A stretch of DNA of 64,000 nucleotides, taken from IMG/VR virus record IMGVR_UViG_3300009093_000040. One strand, 5' to 3'. A model generated the notes under the pieces. The model did not search any database and was not told the DNA's origin. It saw nothing but the letters and a program-made list of their open reading frames with translations. The position numbers and the translations under genes were made by a program. Position 1 is the stretch's first letter. Each line of letters opens with the position of its first letter. This DNA is from a virus. Its lineage: Duplodnaviria; Heunggongvirae; Uroviricota; Caudoviricetes. Positions 4,123-40,051 of this stretch are shown in pieces.

Positions 4123-5071
4123 TTTGAAGTAGTTTTTTCATTAAGTTTTTACCATTACAGTGTACAACCCATCCTTTATAAGCAGCAACCGAGGATGTTC
4201 TGTAATTTCTTTTCAACATTTTTGCAAAACGTTTTTTGATTCGTTTTCTAAGTAAAATATGAGTGTGGTAGAATTTGTAACCTACAAAATCAATTCCTCT
4301 TGCTTTAACTGGAAATATTTGCCAATTTTTCTTTATCTCTAGTTTTAAATTTTCTCTCAAATAAGCTGATATTTCAAAAAATAACTCTCTAAGGTGTTCT
4401 TTACTATGAGATAAAATTACTATATCATCAGCATATCTAAAATAATGTTTTACTTTTTTATTTTCTTTAATCCGGTGATCAAAATATGCAAGATAAAAAT
4501 TAGCAAAATATTGTGAAAGATAATTACCTATGGGAACACCGGGTGCAGAATCTATTATTTCGTCTAAAAGATTTAGTAAATCTTTATCTTTAATTTTTCG
4601 ACGTAATAAAGTTTTCAAAATCTCATGGTCGATATTAGGATAAAATTTTCTTATATCTAATTTTAAACAGTATTGAGTGCCTTCTACATCTAATAATGAT
4701 TTTCTAACTGCACGTAAAGCAGCATGAATTCCTTTGTTTTTTATACAACTATAAGTGTCGCTTGTAAATGTTGAAACAAATACAGGTTCCAAAAAATTCA
4801 TGATTGCATGATGAAGTATTCTATCTGGAAAATAAGGAAGGCGAAATATTTCACGTTCCTTTGGATCATAAATTTTAAAAACACTATAAGGAGATGTTTT
4901 ATAAGTTTTATTTACCAACATTTCATTCAGCTTTAAAATATTTTCATCACGCATTTTATCATGCTTAATTACTCCTGCTTGAAATTGCTTACCTTTTCTA
5001 GCTTTTTTATCAGCTAACAATAAGTTTTCAATAGTGCAAATATTTTGAAATATATCTTTTATTCGTTTCAT
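4100..5071 (-). CDS. DGR reverse transcriptase
   Basis: LKLDIRKFYPNIDH, GVPIGNYLSQ (DGR-type GxxxSQ) and YFRYADD catalytic motif; about 323 aa from ATG 5071 (track start 5089 is TTG). Confidence 0.95.
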   Translation of the reverse strand: MKRIKDIFQNICTIENLLLADKKARKGKQFQAGVIKHDKMRDENILKLNEMLVNKTYKTSPYSVFKIYDPKEREIFRLPYFPDRILHHAIMNFLEPVFVSTFTSDTYSCIKNKGIHAALRAVRKSLLDVEGTQYCLKLDIRKFYPNIDHEILKTLLRRKIKDKDLLNLLDEIIDSAPGVPIGNYLSQYFANFYLAYFDHRIKENKKVKHYFRYADDIVILSHSKEHLRELFFEISAYLRENLKLEIKKNWQIFPVKARGIDFVGYKFYHTHILLRKRIKKRFAKMLKRNYRTSSVAAYKGWVVHCNGKNLMKKLLQNEKRLNT

Positions 5072-6177: not shown

Positions 6178-6612
6178 TTATGTTAAACGTAATTCACTTA
6201 ATCCTAGTTTAATTGCTTCTGCTGGGTGATCAGTTACCCAGCTGTGGCAGTTATGACATCCAGCCATGAAGGTGGTATCATCTAAATAATATTTTCCTCT
6301 CCCTTTTTTATGGTGCACTTCAGTTGCTGTATTGGTACAATCTTTCAAATTCATTTGACAAAAAGGATGATTCTTTAAAAATTGTTTCCTCAAAATGGAA
6401 TACAACACATCTTCCTTTTCTCTTTTTGAAGATCGAGGGCGTATAGGTTTTTGCCTATTGTTTGTTGGTTTACCGTTATTCGTATCGTTTTGGCAACTCT
6501 TACTTTTATAACAGCTTTGGCAATACCTTTTACGCTCCTCGCCTTCAATTACATTTTTCCAGATTGGTTTATCTTTCTGGCAACCGTCACACTTTTTTAA
6601 TTTAATTTTCAT
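6178..6612 (-). CDS. Zn-finger/HNH nuclease-like protein
   Basis: N-terminal CxxC...CxxC; C-terminal ATEVHHKKGRG...CHNCH HNH motif. Confidence 0.7.
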   Translation of the reverse strand: MKIKLKKCDGCQKDKPIWKNVIEGEERKRYCQSCYKSKSCQNDTNNGKPTNNRQKPIRPRSSKREKEDVLYSILRKQFLKNHPFCQMNLKDCTNTATEVHHKKGRGKYYLDDTTFMAGCHNCHSWVTDHPAEAIKLGLSELRLT

Positions 6613-7810: not shown

Positions 7811-7855
7811 TTTTTTTATAATTAAAAAGCCCCAGATTTCTCTGAGGCTTCGGGT

Positions 7856-8167
7856 TTAGTCTTCTTCGTCTAAGGGTGCACTTTCTTCCGGATAATGTGG
7901 AAGTTCTTCATCGGGCACCTCGATTCGCTGTCGGAATTCTCCTTCTTGATCTTCGTGGTTAAACTCAACAGTTTTATCTTCATCTGTAAGCTCATCCGAT
8001 TTTTTATCCCTTTTACCTGTTTTCTTTATCACAGAGCCCTGAAAAGCTGATGTGGGATAGTCACCTGCCCCGGAAGCTTCGAAGTCCTGTAAATCGCGAT
8101 CTGTTAGGTTTAAATATTGATCAACGGTTAATTGAATAATCTTTCCGCTGGGCAGTTGATAAATCAT
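7856..8167 (-). CDS. Hypothetical acidic protein
   Basis: 103-aa ORF followed by a hairpin at about 7826-7851. Confidence 0.65.
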   Translation of the reverse strand: MIYQLPSGKIIQLTVDQYLNLTDRDLQDFEASGAGDYPTSAFQGSVIKKTGKRDKKSDELTDEDKTVEFNHEDQEGEFRQRIEVPDEELPHYPEESAPLDEED

Positions 8168-17971: not shown

Positions 17972-18042
17972 CGCTATGTGTTTTTTATTGCAGGGCTAAA
18001 TTGCTCACCGCACTACAAAGATAACACTTATTTTGAAAAAGC

Positions 18043-18350
18043 AAAAAGCCCCTACTATTATTCGGGGCTAATTGTTTACGCTGCTAAACGTTCTCTGCGT
18101 TTAGAAGTGCGGCATGCGTTTCTGTAATCAGAAAGGCTAACCACTTTTGCTTTGTTGTCTTTTATCTTTTCGTATTTCTATTTCCTATAACTACCACACC
18201 CTGTCAAAACCGGTCGAGCCCATAGTTTGTGCCTTGTGCAAAACAAGGACTAATAAACAATCAGGTAACTACGCCACAACTGCTATTTGTGGACCCGGAG
18301 GGATTCGAACCCTCGTCCAAAAGCGCTGTTAAAGAACGTCAAACAAAATA
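18043..18350 (-). ncRNA. ssrA: Circularly permuted (two-piece) tmRNA
   Basis: The 3' acceptor piece GGAC-GAGGG-TTCGAAT-CCCTC-CGGGTCC-A (18316-18290) precedes the 5' piece GGGCTCGACCGGTTTTGACAG (from 18221); G3.U70 pair; a frame ending LAA-stop (TAA 18078-18076); terminator AGCCCC/GGGGCT-TTTT; TACATTTG promoter at 18363-18356. Confidence 0.8.
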
Positions 18351-18388
18351 CAGAACAAATGTAATAAAAATTGTGTTACTTTTGTATA

Positions 18389-32811: not shown

Positions 32812-33396
32812 ATGATTATAGATATTTCTCAAAATAATGGCACTATAGATTGGAGCAAAGTAAAAGAAATTGCGAATTTAGAAGCCGTAGTTGTTAAAGT
32901 AAGCGAAGGAGTTCAATGTCCAGATCGCTCTGCTAAAATTGATGCAGCAGGTGTGAAATCTATTGGAAAACCTTTACACTATTATCACTTTGCTACATTA
33001 AATAATACAGACGTTTTTTCGGATGCAAAAGCTGAAGCTACTGAATTAGTGGGTTTGTTAAAGAGCCTACCATCTCCTGATGGTTATGTTTGGTTAGATA
33101 TGGAGGAAGAGAAAATTCCATTATCTCCTGTGCAGGTTCAATTATGGGCAAATAGTTTTTTTGATACCATGAAAGCTGCAGGTTATACAAAGTTAGGTTT
33201 ATATGGAGGCACACCTTTTTTAAACAAGGTACTTCCCCCAGACCACAATCTAGGTGTATATCCATTGTGGTCTCCGGATTACGAGCAAGTAGATCATATA
33301 CCAAGAGGATGGACCAAAGCATTTTGGCATCAGTATACAGACCAAGGAAGTGTGCCCGGCATAACAGGGCATGTTGATTTGTCAACAATTGTTTAA
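32812..33396 (+). CDS. GH25 muramidase (endolysin)
   Basis: IIDISQNNGTIDW, VKVSEG, WLDMEE, WQYTDQGSVPGITGHVDL. Confidence 0.9.
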   Translation: MIIDISQNNGTIDWSKVKEIANLEAVVVKVSEGVQCPDRSAKIDAAGVKSIGKPLHYYHFATLNNTDVFSDAKAEATELVGLLKSLPSPDGYVWLDMEEEKIPLSPVQVQLWANSFFDTMKAAGYTKLGLYGGTPFLNKVLPPDHNLGVYPLWSPDYEQVDHIPRGWTKAFWHQYTDQGSVPGITGHVDLSTIV

Positions 33397-33448
33397 GTGA
33401 AATTTTGATTTGTCATTCAAAATGCTTATATTAAATTAAATTAAAGAA

Positions 33449-34012
33449 ATGATTTCAGAACTTTTTTTACCTGACTTAAAACTTATCATAGCAAAAGGAA
33501 GCTTACAGGATAAGAATGATTTTTTTGCAGCGTTGTATAAAAAACAAGAATCTTGGAATGCACCTTATGCCAACGAAACGTATTTGGGTGAGTTGAGTCC
33601 TGATAGACACACAGGTTCTATTAAGGTTCGTGATTTTCCTATGAATCCTAAAAGTTGGGTCGAGTTTGAAACATTTATTGATACAGCATATAAAACAGCA
33701 TTGTTTATTGATCAGTGGAAAAACAATTTAAGTGCTGCAGATTATGCTTGTTATTTAAAACGTGCCGGTATTTATAATGGTCCACATGGTCCACTTTTAA
33801 TTGCGTCAGATGGAACAGTTTTGTCACACGGTTTAATTACTCCTAATGTTTTTGCCTTTGCTTGGAATAAATATCGTGTTCCTTATGAAAGATACACTAT
33901 ACAAAGTGATCCTTTGTTTCCTTATATTAGAGATTTGGCAGCATTGGGCGAAGATCCTACATGTTTCCGTATGAGTAGATACGCTTTTCCAGAGTATACT
34001 TATAATAATTAA
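33449..34012 (+). CDS. Hypothetical protein
   Basis: 187-aa ORF. Confidence 0.65.
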   Translation: MISELFLPDLKLIIAKGSLQDKNDFFAALYKKQESWNAPYANETYLGELSPDRHTGSIKVRDFPMNPKSWVEFETFIDTAYKTALFIDQWKNNLSAADYACYLKRAGIYNGPHGPLLIASDGTVLSHGLITPNVFAFAWNKYRVPYERYTIQSDPLFPYIRDLAALGEDPTCFRMSRYAFPEYTYNN

Positions 34013-34032
34013 GTTTTTTTTATATTTGACGG

Positions 34033-34479
34033 ATGGAAAGAAATGTTTTAGTTTATCTTGATCCGCAAGGAAAACCAGATGATTTTGCACAATGCCGTTC
34101 TTGTAAAATGTTTATTCAAAGTAAAGGTGTTTGTTCTTTGCTTGGAATGGGTGTAAAAATAAATGGAGGCATGTCTTGTACTCAATATGCTTTTGGAAAA
34201 GCAGATGAGACAGAATTAGCACACGTATCAAAATCATTTACACCGGAAGAAGTTGGTTTAGTAGATAGAGAAGTTCGATGTGAAAATTGTGAATTTTTTG
34301 AATCATCAGATAATGATTGTCTTCTTTTTAAAACGTTAAACATTCCGCATAAAGTGAATAAGCATGGTTGCTGCAATGCCCAAGAAGCAAGTGATAAAAA
34401 AGAATCAAGTAAAAAATTAAAAGTTGATCATTCTAAACAACTTGTAATAAAAAGAACAAGTAGCCCTTTTGGTAAATAA
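34033..34479 (+). CDS. Cys-rich protein with two HiPIP-like CxxC repeats
   Basis: CRSCKMF...C...SC and CENCEFF...C...GCC; promoter TATATTTG at 34021. Confidence 0.5.
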   Translation: MERNVLVYLDPQGKPDDFAQCRSCKMFIQSKGVCSLLGMGVKINGGMSCTQYAFGKADETELAHVSKSFTPEEVGLVDREVRCENCEFFESSDNDCLLFKTLNIPHKVNKHGCCNAQEASDKKESSKKLKVDHSKQLVIKRTSSPFGK

Positions 34480-34483
34480 TTTT

Positions 34484-34515
34484 TTTGGTGAATTAAAATT
34501 TAAAATATATCTTTG
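34484..34515 (+). promoter_or_regulatory. Promoter P1 of tRNA block 1
   Basis: TTTG (34484-87)-N20-TATCTTTG (34508-15), matching the Bacteroidota sigma-A consensus. Confidence 0.8.
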
Positions 34516-34522
34516 TCCCATC

Positions 34523-34600
34523 ATGAAAGTAAAAAATTTATATAGTCTTCTATCGTTGAGTTATTCGTTACCAAGCGATGAGGGGATTACTATGAGTTAA
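34523..34600 (+). CDS. Leader peptide 1 (Leu/Ser/Tyr sensor) MKVKNLYSLLSLSYSLPSDEGITMS
   Basis: 25-aa ORF between promoter and terminator; 12 of codons 6-18 are L, S or Y. Confidence 0.85.
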   Translation: MKVKNLYSLLSLSYSLPSDEGITMS

Positions 34601-34627
34601 ACTTTAAAATTTTAGTTTGAACAAGTT

Positions 34628-34662
34628 AAACCCTCAGCGAAACACTGGGGGTTTTGCTTTTT
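34628..34662 (+). terminator. Attenuator terminator 1
   Basis: AAACCCTCAG-loop-CTGGGGGTTT then TGCTTTTT; the 5' arm CCCTCA can alternatively pair with TGAGGG (34579-84). Confidence 0.85.
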
Positions 34663-34664
34663 AT

Positions 34665-34749
34665 GCCCAGTTGGTGAAATTGGACAGAGACACGCCAGAC
34701 TTAGGATCTGGTGCTTTAATGCATGAGGGTTCGAGTCCCTCACTGGGTA
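34665..34749 (+). tRNA. tRNA-Leu(TAG)
   Basis: Cloverleaf, CCAGA-CTTAGGA-TCTGG, long variable arm. Confidence 0.9.
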
Positions 34750-34760
34750 CATAATAAAAT

Positions 34761-34848
34761 GCGTGAGTGGTGCAGATAGGCTGAGACACAACGGACTTAA
34801 AATCCGTGCGATAAGTTCACATCGTGGGTTCGAATCCCACCTCGCGTA
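34761..34848 (+). tRNA. tRNA-Leu(TAA)
   Basis: ACGGA-CTTAAAA-TCCGT, long variable arm. Confidence 0.9.
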
Positions 34849-34853
34849 CAAAA

Positions 34854-34940
34854 GGAGAGTAGGCAAATAATGGTTTGTTGCACCGCACTGCTAACGCGGC
34901 TCATGTAAAAGTGATGAGGGTTCGAGCCCCTTGCTCTCCG
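34854..34940 (+). tRNA. tRNA-Ser(GCT)
   Basis: Loop CTGCTAA, long variable arm, G73. Confidence 0.9.
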
Positions 34941-34946
34941 CAATAA

Positions 34947-35029
34947 GGAAGGGGTCCGAATGGACGAGGAAACTGTCTTGAAAACAGCTGGTCGTAATTG
35001 GCTTGGGGGTTCGATTCCCTTCTCTTCCG
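34947..35029 (+). tRNA. tRNA-Ser(TGA)
   Basis: Loop CTTGAAA, long variable arm, G73. Confidence 0.9.
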
Positions 35030-35040
35030 CAAAATTTAAT

Positions 35041-35113
35041 GGGAGTATCATCACCAACGGTAAGTATTCAGTCTGTAAAACTGCTAATCTAGGTTCGATT
35101 CCTAGTACTCCCA
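35041..35113 (+). tRNA. tRNA-Tyr(GTA), short variable arm
   Basis: GGGAGTA/TACTCCC acceptor, loop CTGTAAA, canonical T arm, weak D stem. Confidence 0.75.
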
Positions 35114-35168
35114 CAAAAATTTCCAACTAGTTGCAACCGGTTGGAATAAAAAAAATTATTTTTTTTTG

Positions 35169-35198
35169 TTTGTATATTAAAAATAAAGTTTACATTTG
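35169..35198 (+). promoter_or_regulatory. Promoter P2 of tRNA block 2
   Basis: TTTG (35169-72)-N18-TACATTTG (35191-98). Confidence 0.75.
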
Positions 35199-35218
35199 CA
35201 GAAGTTAAAAACTAGAAA

Positions 35219-35320
35219 GTGCAAAAACAAATCGTCATAACAGGAATTTGGAATATGGAGAATACCGCGGGTAAAAGAGACTGTGCGTATGGGGCTTCTG
35301 CTTTTCGTTTTAGAGATTAA
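35219..35320 (+). CDS. Leader peptide 2 (13-amino-acid sensor) (M)QKQIVITGIWNMENTAGKRDCAYGASAFRFRD
   Basis: GTG start after an A-rich stretch; codons 5-23 use only and all of the 13 amino acids of the downstream tRNAs. Confidence 0.8.
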   Translation: MQKQIVITGIWNMENTAGKRDCAYGASAFRFRD

Positions 35321-35344
35321 AATTTAAAACATAAAAAGGTAAAG

Positions 35345-35377
35345 GAGCCCGGCACAAAATGTCGGGTTTTTTGTTTT
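35345..35377 (+). terminator. Attenuator terminator 2
   Basis: AGCCCGGCA-CAAAA-TGTCGGGTT then T-tract; GGAGCCC can alternatively pair with GGGCTTC (35292-98). Confidence 0.85.
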
Positions 35378-35406
35378 AAGACGTTCTTTGATTAAAAAAT
35401 AAATTA

Positions 35407-35479
35407 GCTGGTGTAGCTCAAGTGGCAGAGCGGGTGCCTTGTAAGCATCAGGTTGGGGCTTCGATCGCCTCCGTCAGCT
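35407..35479 (+). tRNA. tRNA-Thr(TGT)
   Basis: GGTGC-CTTGTAA-GCATC cloverleaf. Confidence 0.9.
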
Positions 35480-35543
35480 CAGTGATTCGTCCCCATAAAG
35501 GCAGATATAGTACGGGGACTGCATTAGAATCCAATTTATTAAT

Positions 35544-35616
35544 AGCGATATAGCACAATTGGTGGTGCAAGCCTCTCATGATGGCTAGGTTGACAGTTCG
35601 AGTCTGTCTATCGCCA
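35544..35616 (+). tRNA. tRNA with CAT anticodon (Ile2 or Met)
   Basis: AGCCT-CTCATGA-TGGCT; A1.C72 mismatch; isotype not resolvable by eye. Confidence 0.75.
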
Positions 35617-35621
35617 CATAT

Positions 35622-35757
35622 GCGTCGGAAACATTGACGGTGATGTATGCAGGTTCTTTTTGAATTTGTAAGGTGTGATAATTTTACAAAGGAGATGCTT
35701 AGGAATAATCAACCTAAGTTTGAGTTGGCAAAGCAGGTTCGAGTCCTGCCTGATGCA
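35622..35757 (+). ncRNA. tRNA-shaped RNA with multibranched insert replacing the anticodon loop
   Basis: Acceptor GCGTCGG/CTGATGC, D arm ACAT/ATGT, T arm GCAGG-TTCGAGT-CCTGC; about 80-nt insert with TTTGTAA/TTACAAA and CTTAGG/CCTAAG hairpins. Confidence 0.7.
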
Positions 35758-35760
35758 CGA

Positions 35761-35834
35761 GGGGAAGGTCGTTGGTTCGAATCCAACATTGCCGCTGAAA
35801 GGTGGCGATTAGCTCAGCTGGCTAGAGCAGCCCC
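35761..35834 (+). ncRNA. Circularly permuted tRNA-like module with GAAA-capped acceptor stem
   Basis: 3' half (AGGTC-GTTGG-TTCGAAT-CCAAC-ATTGCCGCT) precedes GAAA, then the 5' half (GGTGGCGAT-TA-GCTC-AGCTGGCTA-GAGC-A-GCCCC). Confidence 0.75.
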
Positions 35835-35839
35835 GCGTT

Positions 35840-36142
35840 ATTTGAAATATTGGTTGAGTGTAGTTACTACAGAAAGTCGGTGAGAAAAAGAATCTGCGAG
35901 ATTTGACCCGATGAAATAGAAACTTTGAACGAAATTCAATTTTGCTCCTGTTGATTGATTTTCTAGTATGTCTTCAGAAGTTGATAAAACTTTCAGGGGT
36001 GGTACCAGATCGAAAAGCACGAAAGTTTAATTGTATTAAGAGTAGTTTAATGAGACTTTCTTAGGATATTTTTTCTGTACGGGAAAAAGAAAATATGCAA
36101 ACGTACACGCGTATTCTACAAAAAACACTCAACCAAACAAAT
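35840..36142 (+). ncRNA. Large structured ncRNA domain (GOLLD/ROOL-like candidate)
   Basis: 12-bp closing helix TTGGTTGAGTGT (35850-61)/ACACTCAACCAA (36125-36) enclosing several hairpins; lies in a phage tRNA array. Family assignment unverified. Confidence 0.55.
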
Positions 36143-36217
36143 TGGTAAATAGCTCAGCCCGGTTAGAGCGCCACGCTGATAACGTGGAGATCGATGGTTC
36201 AAATCCATTTTTACCAA
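36143..36217 (+). tRNA. tRNA-Ile(GAT)
   Basis: CCACG-CTGATAA-CGTGG. Confidence 0.9.
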
Positions 36218-36220
36218 CAT

Positions 36221-36296
36221 TGCGGGATAGAGCAGCGGTCAGCTCGTGTGGCTCATAACCATAAGGTCGGAGGTTCGAATCCTTCTCCCGCTACCA
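36221..36296 (+). tRNA. tRNA-fMet(CAT)-like, CCA encoded
   Basis: Unpaired 1:72, GAGC/GCTC D stem as in initiators, loop CTCATAA; lacks the three anticodon-stem GC pairs. Confidence 0.8.
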
Positions 36297-36298
36297 AT

Positions 36299-36370
36299 TC
36301 CTCCTTAGCTCAGAGGCAGAGCGCCGCCCTGTTAAGGCGAGGGTCGATGTATCGTAATCATCAGGAGGAG
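36299..36370 (+). tRNA. tRNA-Asn(GTT)
   Basis: Loop CTGTTAA; atypical T loop ATCGTAA. Confidence 0.85.
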
Positions 36371-36374
36371 CAAT

Positions 36375-36447
36375 GGCTCGTTAGGGGAGCGGAGTCCCTG
36401 CTACACTGTCACTGTAGAGACCATGGGTTCAAATCCCATACGAGCCG
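36375..36447 (+). tRNA. tRNA-Asp(GTC)
   Basis: CTACA-CTGTCAC-TGTAG, G73. Confidence 0.9.
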
Positions 36448-36452
36448 CATAT

Positions 36453-36525
36453 GCACTGGTAGCTCAATTGGCAGAGCGTTGGTCTCCAAAACCAAAGGTT
36501 GTAGGATCGTTGCCTGCCCGGTGTG
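36453..36525 (+). tRNA. tRNA-Trp(CCA)
   Basis: TTGGT-CTCCAAA-ACCAA; T loop ATCGTTG. Confidence 0.85.
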
Positions 36526-36537
36526 CAAAAAAAAGAA

Positions 36538-36660
36538 ATGATGAAAAATAAAAAAGAAAGTGACGAACCTTTTGAGCGAATTTGCTCGGTTCGTCTAAAG
36601 GTTAGGACGTTAGGTTTTCAACCTAAAAATATGGGTTCGATGTCCCGTACCGAGTACTAA
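36538..36660 (+). CDS. Putative regulatory mini-ORF overlapping tRNA-Glu (MMKNKKESDEPFERIC...)
   Basis: A-rich start context; Glu codons lie in the strand that pairs with tRNA-Glu nt 1-12; runs through the tRNA to TAA. Confidence 0.45.
   Translation: MMKNKKESDEPFERICSVRLKVRTLGFQPKNMGSMSRTEY
36584..36656 (+). tRNA. tRNA-Glu(TTC)
   Basis: TTAGG-TTTTCAA-CCTAA. Confidence 0.85.
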
Positions 36661-36664
36661 AATC

Positions 36665-36738
36665 GCAGGTGACGCATAAGTGGTGGTGCGCCAGCCTTCC
36701 AAGCTGGAATAGATTCGGTTCGATCCCGAATACCTGCA
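36665..36738 (+). tRNA. tRNA-Gly(TCC)
   Basis: CCAGC-CTTCCAA-GCTGG. Confidence 0.9.
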
Positions 36739-36743
36739 CACAT

Positions 36744-36791
36744 GCCGAGTTGAAAGGGAACTCACAGTGGGAGCACTGCCCCTCGGCTCCA
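36744..36791 (+). ncRNA. 48-nt acceptor-stem mini-RNA ending in T-CCA
   Basis: GCCGAG/CTCGGC-TCCA enclosing a CAGTG-GGAG-CACTG hairpin; no T loop or anticodon. Confidence 0.45.
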
Positions 36792-36794
36792 ATT

Positions 36795-36867
36795 GGTTCC
36801 ATGGGTGAGTGGATATAACTCAAGGTCTGCAAAACCTTGTACGCTGGTTCGAATCCAGCTGGGACCT
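36795..36867 (+). tRNA. tRNA-Cys(GCA)
   Basis: AAGGT-CTGCAAA-ACCTT, U73. Confidence 0.9.
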
Positions 36868-36875
36868 CTAGTAAT

Positions 36876-36950
36876 GCGCTCTTAGCTCAGGTGGTTAGTA
36901 GCAGCTCACTCATAATGAGCAGGTCGGTGGTTCAAGTCCATCAGGGCGTA
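36876..36950 (+). tRNA. tRNA with CAT anticodon (elongator Met or Ile2)
   Basis: GCTCA-CTCATAA-TGAGC. Confidence 0.85.
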
Positions 36951-36964
36951 CTGAAAATATAAAT

Positions 36965-37037
36965 GGGTTGTCATGTTCCTTGGCTGGCGAGAATGATTTG
37001 CAATCACTCTGGAAGAGTTCGAAACTCTTACGATCCA
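36965..37037 (+). tRNA. tRNA-Ala(TGC)
   Basis: Loop TTTGCAA; G3.U70 Ala identity pair; weak D arm. Confidence 0.8.
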
Positions 37038-37041
37038 CAAT

Positions 37042-37116
37042 ATCTGCATAGCTCAGTTGGTTCAGAGCGCTTGCCTTACAAGCAAAAGGTCGTTGGTTCG
37101 AATCCAGCTGCGGATA
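37042..37116 (+). tRNA. tRNA-Val(TAC)
   Basis: CTTGC-CTTACAA-GCAAA. Confidence 0.9.
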
Positions 37117-37133
37117 CTTAAAATAAAAACCAC

Positions 37134-37196
37134 ATGCTCCTGATTAGGAAATATAAAATAGTTTTTGCTGTTCTTCGAAAGAGGAAGGGTAGATGA
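37134..37196 (+). CDS. Putative Lys/Arg leader peptide MLLIRKYKIVFAVLRKRKGR
   Basis: 20-aa ORF with 4 Lys and 4 Arg codons (3 AGR), ending 7 nt before tRNA-Lys; A-rich AAAACCAC-ATG start. Confidence 0.55.
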   Translation: MLLIRKYKIVFAVLRKRKGR

Positions 37197-37203
37197 TTTA
37201 TAT

Positions 37204-37275
37204 TCCCTCGTGGCAAACAGGTGTAGGCAGTAGACTTTTAATCTATAGGGTCCGGATCGTTACCGGACGGGGGAA
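37204..37275 (+). tRNA. tRNA-Lys(TTT)
   Basis: GTAGA-CTTTTAA-TCTAT; T loop ATCGTTA. Confidence 0.85.
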
Positions 37276-37281
37276 CTTTAC

Positions 37282-37656
37282 ATGAGTAAGACTAAGAATA
37301 AAAAGCTCGGTATGAATGTTAGTACCGCGAATAATAGATTAAGAAAAAAACTTCTTTTTCATTTTGCTAAACTTTTAGGTTTAGATGATTGTTACAGATG
37401 TCATAAGAAGATAAAAAACCTTGAAGAATTTTCTATAGAGCATAAAGAATCTTGGATGAGTTCTAAAAATTCTTTGGATAAATTTTTTGATTTAGATAAT
37501 ATTGCTTTTTCTCATTTGATTTGTAACATTAAGTTTGAACGGATTAAAACAGGAGTAAAACACCCTTCGCATAGGGCATATAACCAAGGGTGTAGATGTG
37601 ATGGTTGTAAGAATGTAGAAAAAGAACGTAGAAGGAGTCAACGTCAAAATAAATAA
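37282..37656 (+). CDS. HNH endonuclease
   Basis: CYRC...FSIEHKESW...DNIAFSHLICN. Confidence 0.75.
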   Translation: MSKTKNKKLGMNVSTANNRLRKKLLFHFAKLLGLDDCYRCHKKIKNLEEFSIEHKESWMSSKNSLDKFFDLDNIAFSHLICNIKFERIKTGVKHPSHRAYNQGCRCDGCKNVEKERRRSQRQNK

Positions 37657-37662
37657 AATTTT

Positions 37663-37736
37663 GGTTCTATAGCTCAACTGGATAGAGCACCAGCCTTCTA
37701 AGCTGGGGGTTCTTGGTTCGAATCCAAGTAGGATCA
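37663..37736 (+). tRNA. tRNA-Arg(TCT)
   Basis: CCAGC-CTTCTAA-GCTGG. Confidence 0.9.
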
Positions 37737-37757
37737 CAAAAAAAAATAAAAATAAAT

Positions 37758-37788
37758 TTTGTAGTGTAAAAAACTATTTATAGATTTG
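37758..37788 (+). promoter_or_regulatory. Promoter P3 of tRNA block 3
   Basis: TTTG (37758-61)-N19-TAGATTTG (37781-88). Confidence 0.8.
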
Positions 37789-37792
37789 TCGC

Positions 37793-37873
37793 ATGAAAAA
37801 TATTACTTTACATCAATTTCCGTTTCAGTTTCGCCCGGTAGGAGCGAAGGGGAATGGTTGTATCCGGATGTAA
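37793..37873 (+). CDS. Leader peptide 3 (His/Gln/Phe/Pro/Arg sensor) MKNITLHQFPFQFRPVGAKGNGCIRM
   Basis: 26-aa ORF; codons 7-15 read HQFPFQFRP. Confidence 0.85.
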   Translation: MKNITLHQFPFQFRPVGAKGNGCIRM

Positions 37874-37897
37874 ACTAAAGTTTATCAAAGATATTCG

Positions 37898-37932
37898 AAG
37901 CCCCTTCTGAAAAGTTGGGGCTTTTGTTTTTT
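37898..37932 (+). terminator. Attenuator terminator 3
   Basis: AAGCCCC...GGGGCTT then TTGTTTTTT; CCCCTTC (37901-07) can alternatively pair with GAAGGGG (37846-52). Confidence 0.85.
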
Positions 37933-37941
37933 GAAATATTT

Positions 37942-38014
37942 CGAGATGTAGTTCAGTTGGTAGAATACGTGCTTTGGGAGCATGGGGTCGTCGGTTCGAG
38001 TCCGGTCATCTCGA
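37942..38014 (+). tRNA. tRNA-Pro(TGG)
   Basis: CGTGC-TTTGGGA-GCATG, C1-G72. Confidence 0.9.
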
Positions 38015-38017
38015 CTA

Positions 38018-38165
38018 AATTGTTGAAACGGGGTAGCGCCGTTCTTAGCGTAATCGCGTATGGTCCCATTGAGTTGGGGACAATAAGTCCATACGGTAAA
38101 GGCTGTCAAAAATGGGGAAGAGAAATCTTAGTAAGAAGGTTTACCGATGCAAGTTCGGAACAATT
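38018..38165 (+). ncRNA. Unassigned structured RNA (about 150 nt)
   Basis: Closing AATTGTT/AACAATT; internal CGTATGG/CCATACG, TTCTTA/TAAGAA and a CCGA-TGCAAGT-TCGG T-arm-like hairpin. Confidence 0.5.
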
Positions 38166-38171
38166 TAATTT

Positions 38172-38243
38172 GGAGCCATAGCTCAGTAGGTAGAGCAGCA
38201 GACTGAAAATCTGCCCGCACTGGTTCGATTCCAGTTGGTTCCA
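38172..38243 (+). tRNA. tRNA-Phe(GAA)
   Basis: GCAGA-CTGAAAA-TCTGC. Confidence 0.9.
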
Positions 38244-38304
38244 CTTTTATTTTTTTTTTTTGAATCTAAATTATAGATTCAAAATTTATTTTTATTTTTG
38301 TACT

Positions 38305-38703
38305 ATGAAATTATGTACAACATGTAAAATAGAAAAAGACGAAAGTGAGTTTAATAAAAATGAAAGGCAAGGAATTCAAAGTAAGTGTAGGTCTTGTAAC
38401 AGTGAATATCTCAAAAATCATTATAAAAACAACCGAAAATATTACATAGATAAGACAAAAAATAGACGTAAAAGTATAAGAAAATTTATTAATTCTTTGA
38501 AATTAAAATGTGTACGATGCCCTGAAAATCATATAGCTTGTTTAGATTTTCATCATCTATCGGATAAAGATATAAACATTGCTGACCTTGTTAATTCGGG
38601 AGCATCAAAAGAAAAAATATTGCAAGAAATTTCTAAATGTGTTGTTCTTTGTTCAAATTGTCATAGAAAACTTCACTATAATGAAAGAAAAATTGTCTCA
38701 TAG
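38305..38703 (+). CDS. HNH endonuclease
   Basis: CxxC repeats, CLDFHH...ISKCVVLCSNCHRKLHY; ATG 38305 after TATTTTTG; stop lies inside tRNA-Gln. Confidence 0.8.
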   Translation: MKLCTTCKIEKDESEFNKNERQGIQSKCRSCNSEYLKNHYKNNRKYYIDKTKNRRKSIRKFINSLKLKCVRCPENHIACLDFHHLSDKDINIADLVNSGASKEKILQEISKCVVLCSNCHRKLHYNERKIVS

Positions 38704-38765
38704 TGTAAAGGCAACATGTCTGGTTTTGGACCAGAAGATTACAGGTTCGACCCCTGTTGAGATAA
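38694..38765 (+). tRNA. tRNA-Gln(TTG)
   Basis: TCTGG-TTTTGGA-CCAGA. Confidence 0.9.
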
Positions 38766-38767
38766 CT

Positions 38768-38840
38768 GGGGCTTTTCGTCTAATGGTTAGGACGCTTGCT
38801 TGTGGAGCAAGAAATTTCGGTTCGAATCCGTGATAGCCCC
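38768..38840 (+). tRNA. tRNA-His(GTG)
   Basis: G-1/C73, CTTGC-TTGTGGA-GCAAG. Confidence 0.9.
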
Positions 38841-38849
38841 CAGACATAT

Positions 38850-38921
38850 TCCAACGTCGTCTAATGGACAGGACACAGGGCTACGGACCTTGGGGTGGGA
38901 GTTCGATTCTCTCCGATGGAA
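38850..38921 (+). tRNA. tRNA-Arg(ACG)
   Basis: CAGGG-CTACGGA-CCTTG. Confidence 0.9.
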
Positions 38922-39024
38922 CTTATTATCAACAAAACATTAAAATAGTATTTTGTGTGTTAAAACTATTTTTTGACATCAAAAATATTATTATATACAT
39001 TTGGACAATCTTAAACCAACAAGA

Positions 39025-39243
39025 ATGAATTCAAATGCAAATGAGGGTGGCGAAGCTACTGCGGAACAAATCCAAAAACGTAAAGAAGATCAAAAAAATC
39101 AAAAAGCACTAATGGAAGATGCCCTTCCGTTTTTGAGAACTCAAATGGAGTATTTCGAAACACAAGCAAGAATAGATGAGGCAATTGTTCGTAGAGAACG
39201 GGCTAATATAATGCTTGCTGAAATGAAAGCTCCAAAAAAATAA
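39025..39243 (+). CDS. Hypothetical coiled-coil protein
   Basis: ATG 39025 after TACATTTG (38996). Confidence 0.7.
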   Translation: MNSNANEGGEATAEQIQKRKEDQKNQKALMEDALPFLRTQMEYFETQARIDEAIVRRERANIMLAEMKAPKK

Positions 39244-39246
39244 TAA

Positions 39247-39660
39247 ATGGCAAAGACAAAAGTTGTAGATAAAGTTATCCAACAGGATCTTTTTGAAATT
39301 GTAAAATTTCAGATAATGCTTCATTGTCATTTGAATAATGTTATTTTAAATCAAAGTGAACTTAGTTGTCTTACACTTTTGGGTTGTGTTGGTGAGATGC
39401 AGTTAATCACATTTTGTAGATTAGCTGTTGAAAAAGAATTATATACCACACCTACTGCCGTTAACAATTGTTTAGCGCGCGTTGAAAAAAGTAAACTTTT
39501 TATTAAGAAAGGTGGTGGTAAGAAACTTATTTTTCTTAATCCGGAATTAAAAATTCAAACGAAAGGTAACATATTGTTGAACTTAAAGATTGTGAGAGTT
39601 GAAGCCCAAGAAACCAAAGGAGTTAATCAAGGAAACAGCGTTGCGGTTGAACATGCCTGA
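39247..39660 (+). CDS. Hypothetical protein (possible winged HTH)
   Basis: 137-aa ORF at the head of the morphogenesis operon. Confidence 0.65.
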   Translation: MAKTKVVDKVIQQDLFEIVKFQIMLHCHLNNVILNQSELSCLTLLGCVGEMQLITFCRLAVEKELYTTPTAVNNCLARVEKSKLFIKKGGGKKLIFLNPELKIQTKGNILLNLKIVRVEAQETKGVNQGNSVAVEHA

Positions 39661-40051
39661 AGAGGTTGTTAGGGACATTGTGTATTTTTACTGGAAAGAA
39701 GTTAGAAAACAAATGTCTATGTTAGAAGCAGCTCGGGTTTATATTGTTAGATTAGGGTGGTTTGATATAAAGCACTGGCGATTAAAATATACAATAAAGG
39801 ATTATGAGGGCATGCTTTCTCACATTGATGTTACAGAGTCATTGGTTAATGCAAAAAAAGCATCAGAGATTCAGGATAAGCTAACTAACGTTTTAAAAAT
39901 TCAACAAATTGTAGGGCTTGAATTAGAGAAAAAAAAGGATAAAAATGCACAACGAAGAAGAAAAGAAGAAATCATTAGGCAAAGCTTGGAAGAACAGAAA
40001 ACAAATTTGGGAGGGAATCCTGAACTTCCTGATTCGGAATCCGAGAATTGA
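39599..40051 (+). CDS. HU/IHF-like DNA-binding protein
   Basis: KELIKETALRLNMPEEVVRDIV...RVYIVRLGWF. Confidence 0.55.
   Translation: MKPKKPKELIKETALRLNMPEEVVRDIVYFYWKEVRKQMSMLEAARVYIVRLGWFDIKHWRLKYTIKDYEGMLSHIDVTESLVNAKKASEIQDKLTNVLKIQQIVGLELEKKKDKNAQRRRKEEIIRQSLEEQKTNLGGNPELPDSESEN

Follow-up and report, generated by a model that had tools for sequence, protein, structure and literature searches.

A probable leader-peptide attenuator ahead of a Leu/Ser/Tyr tRNA block in the tRNA array of a phage

Can a phage tie the synthesis of its own tRNAs to the speed at which the matching codons are read? The question is raised by a locus in which a promoter, a short open reading frame (ORF) crowded with leucine, serine and tyrosine codons, and a terminator hairpin stand before five tRNA genes for these same amino acids. 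tRNA genes are usually regarded as constitutive or as controlled by growth rate. For those of phages, the usual explanations are codon usage and evasion of defences that cleave tRNAs. The unit analysed here is likely to be a ribosome-mediated (leader-peptide) attenuator, which would couple the Leu/Ser/Tyr tRNA unit to how fast its own codons are decoded. Most of the remaining probability falls to translation-coupled control exerted through another output.

The window, that is, the whole stretch of 64,000 nucleotides that was analysed, is AT-rich (~33% GC) and encodes a large terminase, a portal protein and a major head protein. The terminase shares only ~25% identity with its counterparts in crAss-like, Flavobacterium and Cellulophaga phages. 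This points to a crAss-like phage of Bacteroidota as the source and, because the identity is so low, to a distant one. Matching DNA occurs in rhizosphere, soil and wetland metagenomes. A tRNA array occupies positions 34665–38922 of the plus strand. The Leu/Ser/Tyr unit is the first unit of the array, and its genes are the following.

34665–34750, plus strand: tRNA-Leu(TAG), called by ARAGORN and Rfam
34761–34849, plus strand: tRNA-Leu(TAA), called by ARAGORN and Rfam
34854–34941, plus strand: tRNA-Ser(GCT), called by ARAGORN and Rfam
34947–35030, plus strand: tRNA-Ser(TGA), called by ARAGORN, with only a sub-threshold tRNA-Sec match in Rfam
35041–35113, plus strand: tRNA-Tyr(GTA), Rfam tRNA match of 39.5 bits, with no call by ARAGORN

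The GTA anticodon of the last gene is read directly off its anticodon loop, CUGUAAA. This gene is 73 nt long and has a short variable arm; its counterpart in the related contig L082 has 82 nt.

The leader region upstream of these genes contains the elements listed here. L082 and L083 are two of the relatives described below.

34484–34487, plus strand: TTTG, −33 element of a Bacteroidota-type promoter, found by motif search
34508–34515, plus strand: TATCTTTG, −7 element, found by motif search and invariant in L082 and L083
34523–34600, plus strand: leader ORF of 25 codons and a stop (ATG at 34523, TAA at 34598–34600)
34538–34576, plus strand: run of Leu/Ser/Tyr (L/S/Y) codons (codons 6–18), unique in six frames
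34535–34557, plus strand: region 1, 5′ arm of the protector (1:2) helix, which has 25 pairs
34574–34598, plus strand: region 2, 3′ arm of the protector helix, containing TGAGGG (34579–34584), the 5′ arm of the antiterminator
34589–34626, plus strand: inner helices of the extended antiterminator (34589–34603 with 34614–34626), with invariant stems and a loop that varies in L083
34628–34654, plus strand: intrinsic terminator hairpin, regions 3 and 4, with CCCTCA (34631–34636) in its 5′ arm
34652–34664, plus strand: U-rich terminator tract, which stops one base short of tRNA-Leu (34665)
34636–34658, plus strand: weaker alternative hairpin followed by UUUUAU, which remains when the antiterminator forms

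The proposed mechanism of control comprises the following steps. (i) The promoter at 34484–34515 would start a transcript whose first codons are those of the 25-codon ORF, on which decoding is put to the test. (ii) When the Leu, Ser and Tyr codons are read fast, the ribosome would cover region 2, the terminator would form and transcription would stop before the tRNA genes. (iii) When the cognate tRNAs are scarce or uncharged, the ribosome would stall on codons 6–14 and occupy region 1. (iv) Region 2 (TGAGGG and the bases that follow) would then be available to the 5′ arm of the terminator as a pairing partner, and read-through would result. (v) Read-through would yield Leu(TAG), Leu(TAA), Ser(GCT), Ser(TGA) and Tyr(GTA). 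As these products would relieve the stall, the supply of precisely these five tRNAs would be sensed through negative feedback. In this direction of control, which we infer from the layout, the phage probably makes the five tRNAs only when the leader codons are read slowly.

The transcript is predicted from the promoter to start at ~34520. The motif TTTG-N18-21-TAnnTTTG has seven matches in the window, three of which lie directly before the three leaders of the array; a fourth lies past the array, ahead of an ordinary protein gene. The ATG follows the −7 box by 7 nt in leader 1 and by 4 nt in leader 3, so that these messages would be nearly leaderless. No Shine–Dalgarno sequence stands before the leader ORF, and its translation would depend on this putative, nearly leaderless start. 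For Deinococcus deserti, leader peptides on leaderless transcripts have been proposed (PMC4007540). The absence of a Shine–Dalgarno sequence also lends something to a quite different reading, in which the leader is an untranslated structure (a leaky constitutive terminator, an insulator that follows the gene upstream, or a hairpin for processing) and the L/S/Y frame is a by-product of the hairpin. We judge this improbable, largely for reasons that lie in the codons.

The sequence-only reading gave codons 6–18 as L Y S L L S L S Y S L P S, and they are exactly so, with 12 of the 13 specifying Leu, Ser or Tyr. No other stop-free stretch of 13 codons among the ~128,000 codon positions of the window (64 kb, six frames) has at least 12 from that set; Leu, Ser and Tyr together make up 23% of six-frame codons and 19% of those in the long ORFs of the phage. 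The whole run had also been taken to sample the codons of the downstream tRNAs. All five tRNAs are indeed matched, and codons 6–14 (34538–34564) include a cognate codon for each of them. The usable sensing codons are these nine and not codons 6–18, because the switch described below occurs only with the A site at codons 6–14. The run is rich in codons that are rare in the phage, such as TCG (8% of Ser codons), CTA (5% of Leu codons) and AGC. Reading of CTT, and of CTC in L083, by the UAG anticodon requires extended wobble.

The array holds two sister units, at 35169–35406 and 37758–37941, each with a promoter, a leader ORF and a terminator; the ORF of leader 2 lies at 35219–35320 (33 residues) and that of leader 3 at 37793–37873. 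The peptide HQFPFQFRP of leader 3 (at 37811) is the sole nine-codon H/Q/F/P/R run in the six frames of the window, and it precedes tRNAs for Pro, Phe, Gln, His and Arg(ACG). Leader 2 contains the sole 18-codon stretch (starting at 35231; two windows with a one-codon offset) in which all 12 amino acids of block 2 occur. Even the Arg codons suit the isoacceptor of their own block, with AGA before Arg(TCT) and CGC before Arg(ACG). Since these are three independent unique matches, each correctly placed, coincidence is excluded for practical purposes. That each of three separate leaders fits its own tRNA set better than anything else in 64 kb also tells against a leader that is not translated.

The pairings of the earlier reading proved to be parts of longer helices. 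ATCGTT and AGCGAT (34552–34557 and 34574–34579) do pair, through five Watson–Crick pairs and one G–U pair. They form just the core of the protector, which has 25 pairs and not six. TGAGGG (34579–34584) and CCCTCA (34631–34636) are perfect complements, within an antiterminator that extends to 18 pairs. The terminator placed at 34628–34654 was confirmed as a 10-pair stem with a 7-nt loop, followed by the U tract; the computed folding energy of this segment and a few adjoining pairs is −15.3 kcal/mol. The leader RNA folds at −39.8 kcal/mol (z = −4.25 against 200 shuffles). The 6-nt antiterminator complement by itself arises in 6% of shuffles and is not significant alone, a point in favour of an untranslated structured leader. 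The weaker hairpin at 34636–34658 might still terminate transcription in the antiterminated state.

The run could also be imagined to act as RNA. T-box-like or sponge-like binding of anticodons would then sense uncharged or total tRNA without a ribosome, and the codons for all five downstream tRNAs are on show in the run. We hold this to be very improbable indeed. The codons are hidden in the 25-pair helix and do not lie in a specifier loop, and the run is in frame with a start codon just past the promoter and with a stop that is conserved in relatives. The leader has no T-box or other Rfam match at E ≤ 1 in a cmscan search of 33000–40000. The same search gave no match to the leader families for Trp, His, Leu, Thr and Phe, so that no likeness of the phage leader to any Rfam leader family was detected.

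Reading by a ribosome, the favoured alternative to RNA binding, was modelled by masking a 27-nt footprint, which began 15 nt before the first base of the codon in the A site and ended 11 nt beyond it, and by moving this mask along the ORF codon by codon. A ribosome stalled in the run had been expected to leave TGAGGG free, and masked folding agrees: with the A site at codons 6–14 the 2:3 antiterminator replaces the 1:2 hairpin and the terminator in the minimum-energy fold. The computed probability of the terminator at these positions is 0.3–0.7 in the window and 0.14–0.5 in L082; it is 1.0 at all others. At equilibrium the terminator of the window is displaced only in part, and in L083 it is favoured whatever the position of the ribosome, without any switch. 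The switch would therefore have to be kinetic. The classical trp terminator is likewise the more stable fold, which makes a kinetic test, on transcripts cut ahead of the 3′ arm of the terminator, the relevant one. In such cut transcripts CCCUC is largely unpaired in the free RNA and paired with a probability of ~1.0 when the ribosome is on codons 8–14; its sequestration on stalling is seen in the window, L082 and L083. In silico, the antiterminator excludes the terminator and forms only with a ribosome on the run, the equilibrium fold of L083 excepted. In leader 3 the terminator arm is sequestered exactly when the ribosome is at codons 7–15, which are the H/Q/F/P/R run. In leader 2 the antiterminator is the default and is lost only once the ribosome reaches codons 22–32.

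A related reading keeps the sensor and changes the output. The leader would sense Leu, Ser and Tyr decoding, and it would act on Rho access, on processing of the first tRNAs by RNase P or RNase E, or on the stability of the precursor. The codon match links the unit to translation and leaves the mode of action unspecified. Several features of the structure would be at home in such a unit: the equilibrium terminator is barely displaced (in L083 not at all), the second hairpin (34636–34658) remains, and the U tract ends one base before tRNA-Leu, so that the leader structure touches the RNase P site. Against this stand a canonical GC-rich stem with a U tract in all three units of the array, the exposure in each unit of the complement of the terminator 5′ arm only with a ribosome on the run, and a layout that is found again in three unrelated phages (see below). 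We consider an output of this other kind unlikely, and attenuation at the terminator is the preferred reading.

Relatives were found by searching with two upstream proteins. The close ones are L082 (15.5 kb) and L095 (5.8 kb); L083 (2.6 kb) has a neighbouring protein that is 70% identical. L084, L094 and L001 are more distant; the array is absent from them (L001 carries no tRNAs), and the leader is absent too. The frame and the stop position of the leader are kept in L082, L095 and L083. The L095 leader differs from that of the window by a single change, CTA to CTG. In L082 the same change is accompanied by AAA to AAG and, at codon 24, by ATG to GTG (M to V). The L083 leader has a GTG start and a 6-nt in-frame deletion; nine consecutive L/S/Y codons are kept and six residues of the tail are altered. 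Survival of the frame and of the L/S/Y run through this indel, despite the changed tail residues, is a further argument against an untranslated leader. On the other side, conservation among the relatives is at the nucleotide level, which suits that reading; for the same reason, selection on codons and selection on structure are inseparable.

All three helices are preserved along with the frame. In three sequences, 100% of the cells of the 25-pair protector are paired and seven of seven substitutions keep the pairing, compared with ~50% for slid controls. For the 18-pair antiterminator the figure is 94% in three sequences, the stems being invariant and the loop variable. Among the relatives no pair has changes on both sides, so that the helices show conservation and not covariation, in a comparative set that is small and shallow (four sequences, of which three are almost the same). 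Short contigs that come from two other studies have six differences over 34465–34665, and of those listed four lie before the ATG and none in the ORF; the same contigs have 16 differences in the coding stretch 34300–34435. Relatives of the large terminase (80 loci, 59–65% identity) and five large contigs carry from zero to two tRNAs and no leaders, and a search with the exact leader sequence found no further match. Four matches to a conserved 16-mer were set aside as chance only, as was L091, the sole match to the JGI metagenome pattern.

The wider distribution of such leaders was explored in 114 unrelated IMG/VR contigs, picked solely by a particular tRNA-Leu anticodon stem-loop. Short upstream ORFs were scored for their match to the amino acids served by each tRNA block, and permuted amino-acid sets supplied the null. 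Of the 318 tRNA blocks preceded by a short ORF, three had a matched leader at p < 1e-5, and permuted sets gave 0.2 (at most one, in 30 permutations). This excess of matched short ORFs in unrelated contigs again disfavours a reading in which the frame is a by-product of structure. L164 (unit on the minus strand, ~4127–4304), from a phage of 597 kb, has 24 codons in a row that all specify N, L, T, I, V, C or R, ahead of tRNAs for Val, Leu, Ile, Leu, Arg, Asn, Cys and Thr. In L136 (minus strand, ~7827–7940), HLLNPNYLLP stands before tRNAs for Pro, His, Leu, Asn, Leu and Tyr. In L121 (unit at 6214–6352), from a phage of 494 kb, a Leu-rich leader precedes six to seven Leu tRNAs. In all three, the 5′ arm of the terminator is sequestered only with the masked ribosome on the run. 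The three are mutually unrelated in sequence and differ in design, which suggests that the device arose more than once. The top score before the short-ORF filter belonged to L148; it was rejected as the C-terminus of an Ala-rich protein.

A codon-matched leader with a terminator was not found before the tRNA blocks of crAss001 or of the huge phage LR756504, and as these arrays do without one the device is not general. A smaller resemblance is present in crAss001 (L093:740–783), where the −7 box TATCTTTG is followed after 4 nt by an ATG and a four-codon mini-ORF (M I R R stop). The mini-ORF lies immediately upstream of tRNA-Gln and tRNA-Arg, and there is no terminator.

Leader-peptide attenuators are known for amino-acid operons. 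Examples are trpL, hisL, leuL and pheL, and the multivalent thrL and ilvL. The phage unit shares with trpL, hisL, leuL and pheL a short ORF, a run of regulatory codons, mutually exclusive protector, antiterminator and terminator helices, and a read-out by ribosome position. As in ilvL and thrL, several amino acids would be sensed together. It differs from the attenuators of amino-acid operons in what it would control, namely tRNAs and not biosynthetic enzymes, so that the product would feed back on decoding itself. It differs further in being encoded by a phage and in having a nearly leaderless ORF behind a Bacteroidota promoter. T-box riboswitches resemble it in coupling the choice between terminator and antiterminator to the state of a particular tRNA. 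In a T-box, uncharged tRNA is bound directly, without translation, and one specifier codon is read; none is known ahead of tRNA genes. crAss001, a phage of Bacteroidota, and LR756504 likewise have clustered tRNA genes, but without the codon-matched ORF and terminator. In the pheM leader of pheST, too, attenuation is applied to a component of the translation apparatus. Leaderless leader peptides with the start codon at the 5′ end of the transcript have been predicted before tRNA synthetase genes in D. deserti (PMC4007540). The pheM and D. deserti units concern synthetase proteins and one amino acid, whereas the phage unit has five tRNA genes and five isoacceptors. An attenuator before the Escherichia coli tRNA-Phe genes pheU and pheV was looked for as a possible precedent, and none is present in the K-12 sequences. 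In full-text literature searches, no description came up of tRNA genes controlled by a leader peptide, and such attenuation appears to be unpublished.

If the preferred reading is correct, the array would contain a direct feedback loop that runs from decoding speed to tRNA synthesis, block by block, and classical attenuation would extend to non-coding products. Leader codons that equal downstream anticodons would then be a signature for finding regulated tRNA units in phage genomes. The units would also offer compact parts for circuits that sense the tRNA pool.

Leaders and tRNA genes appear to have had different histories. Between the window and L082, the three promoter–leader–terminator units are 95–98% identical and the flanking gene is 92.6% identical, while the five tRNAs of block 1 (34665–35113 against L082:5848–6308) are 59–67% identical, with anticodons and order unchanged. 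Set against leader units this similar, tRNAs this divergent indicate an exchange of the tRNA genes behind a leader and an identity set that stayed in place; these genes seem to have been swapped as cassettes. A possible reason, offered tentatively, is that the leaders serve counter-defence as alarms for tRNA depletion. Anticodon nucleases of the host or infection-induced decay would deplete particular tRNAs and so stall ribosomes on the leader ORF with the matching codons, and only the block of replacement tRNAs that is needed would be switched on. The swapping of tRNAs with anticodon and order kept would then be the trace of an arms race against tRNA-targeting defences.

Several other features of the array and the window may be recorded. 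In the tRNAs for Asn, Asp, Trp, Lys, Phe and Gln, too, the window and L082 are just 55–70% identical. An HNH-like ORF of 124 residues (37282–37656) lies between tRNA-Lys and tRNA-Arg(TCT); as these two genes are neighbours in L082, it is probably a mobile endonuclease insertion within block 2. A weak Rfam match to YrlA (Y RNA-like; 32 bits against a gathering score of 69) lies at 35746–35851, in the gap of block 2 from tRNA-Met to tRNA-Ile. Outside the array, at 17985–18383 on the minus strand, ARAGORN finds a permuted tmRNA gene with a tag peptide of 27 residues.
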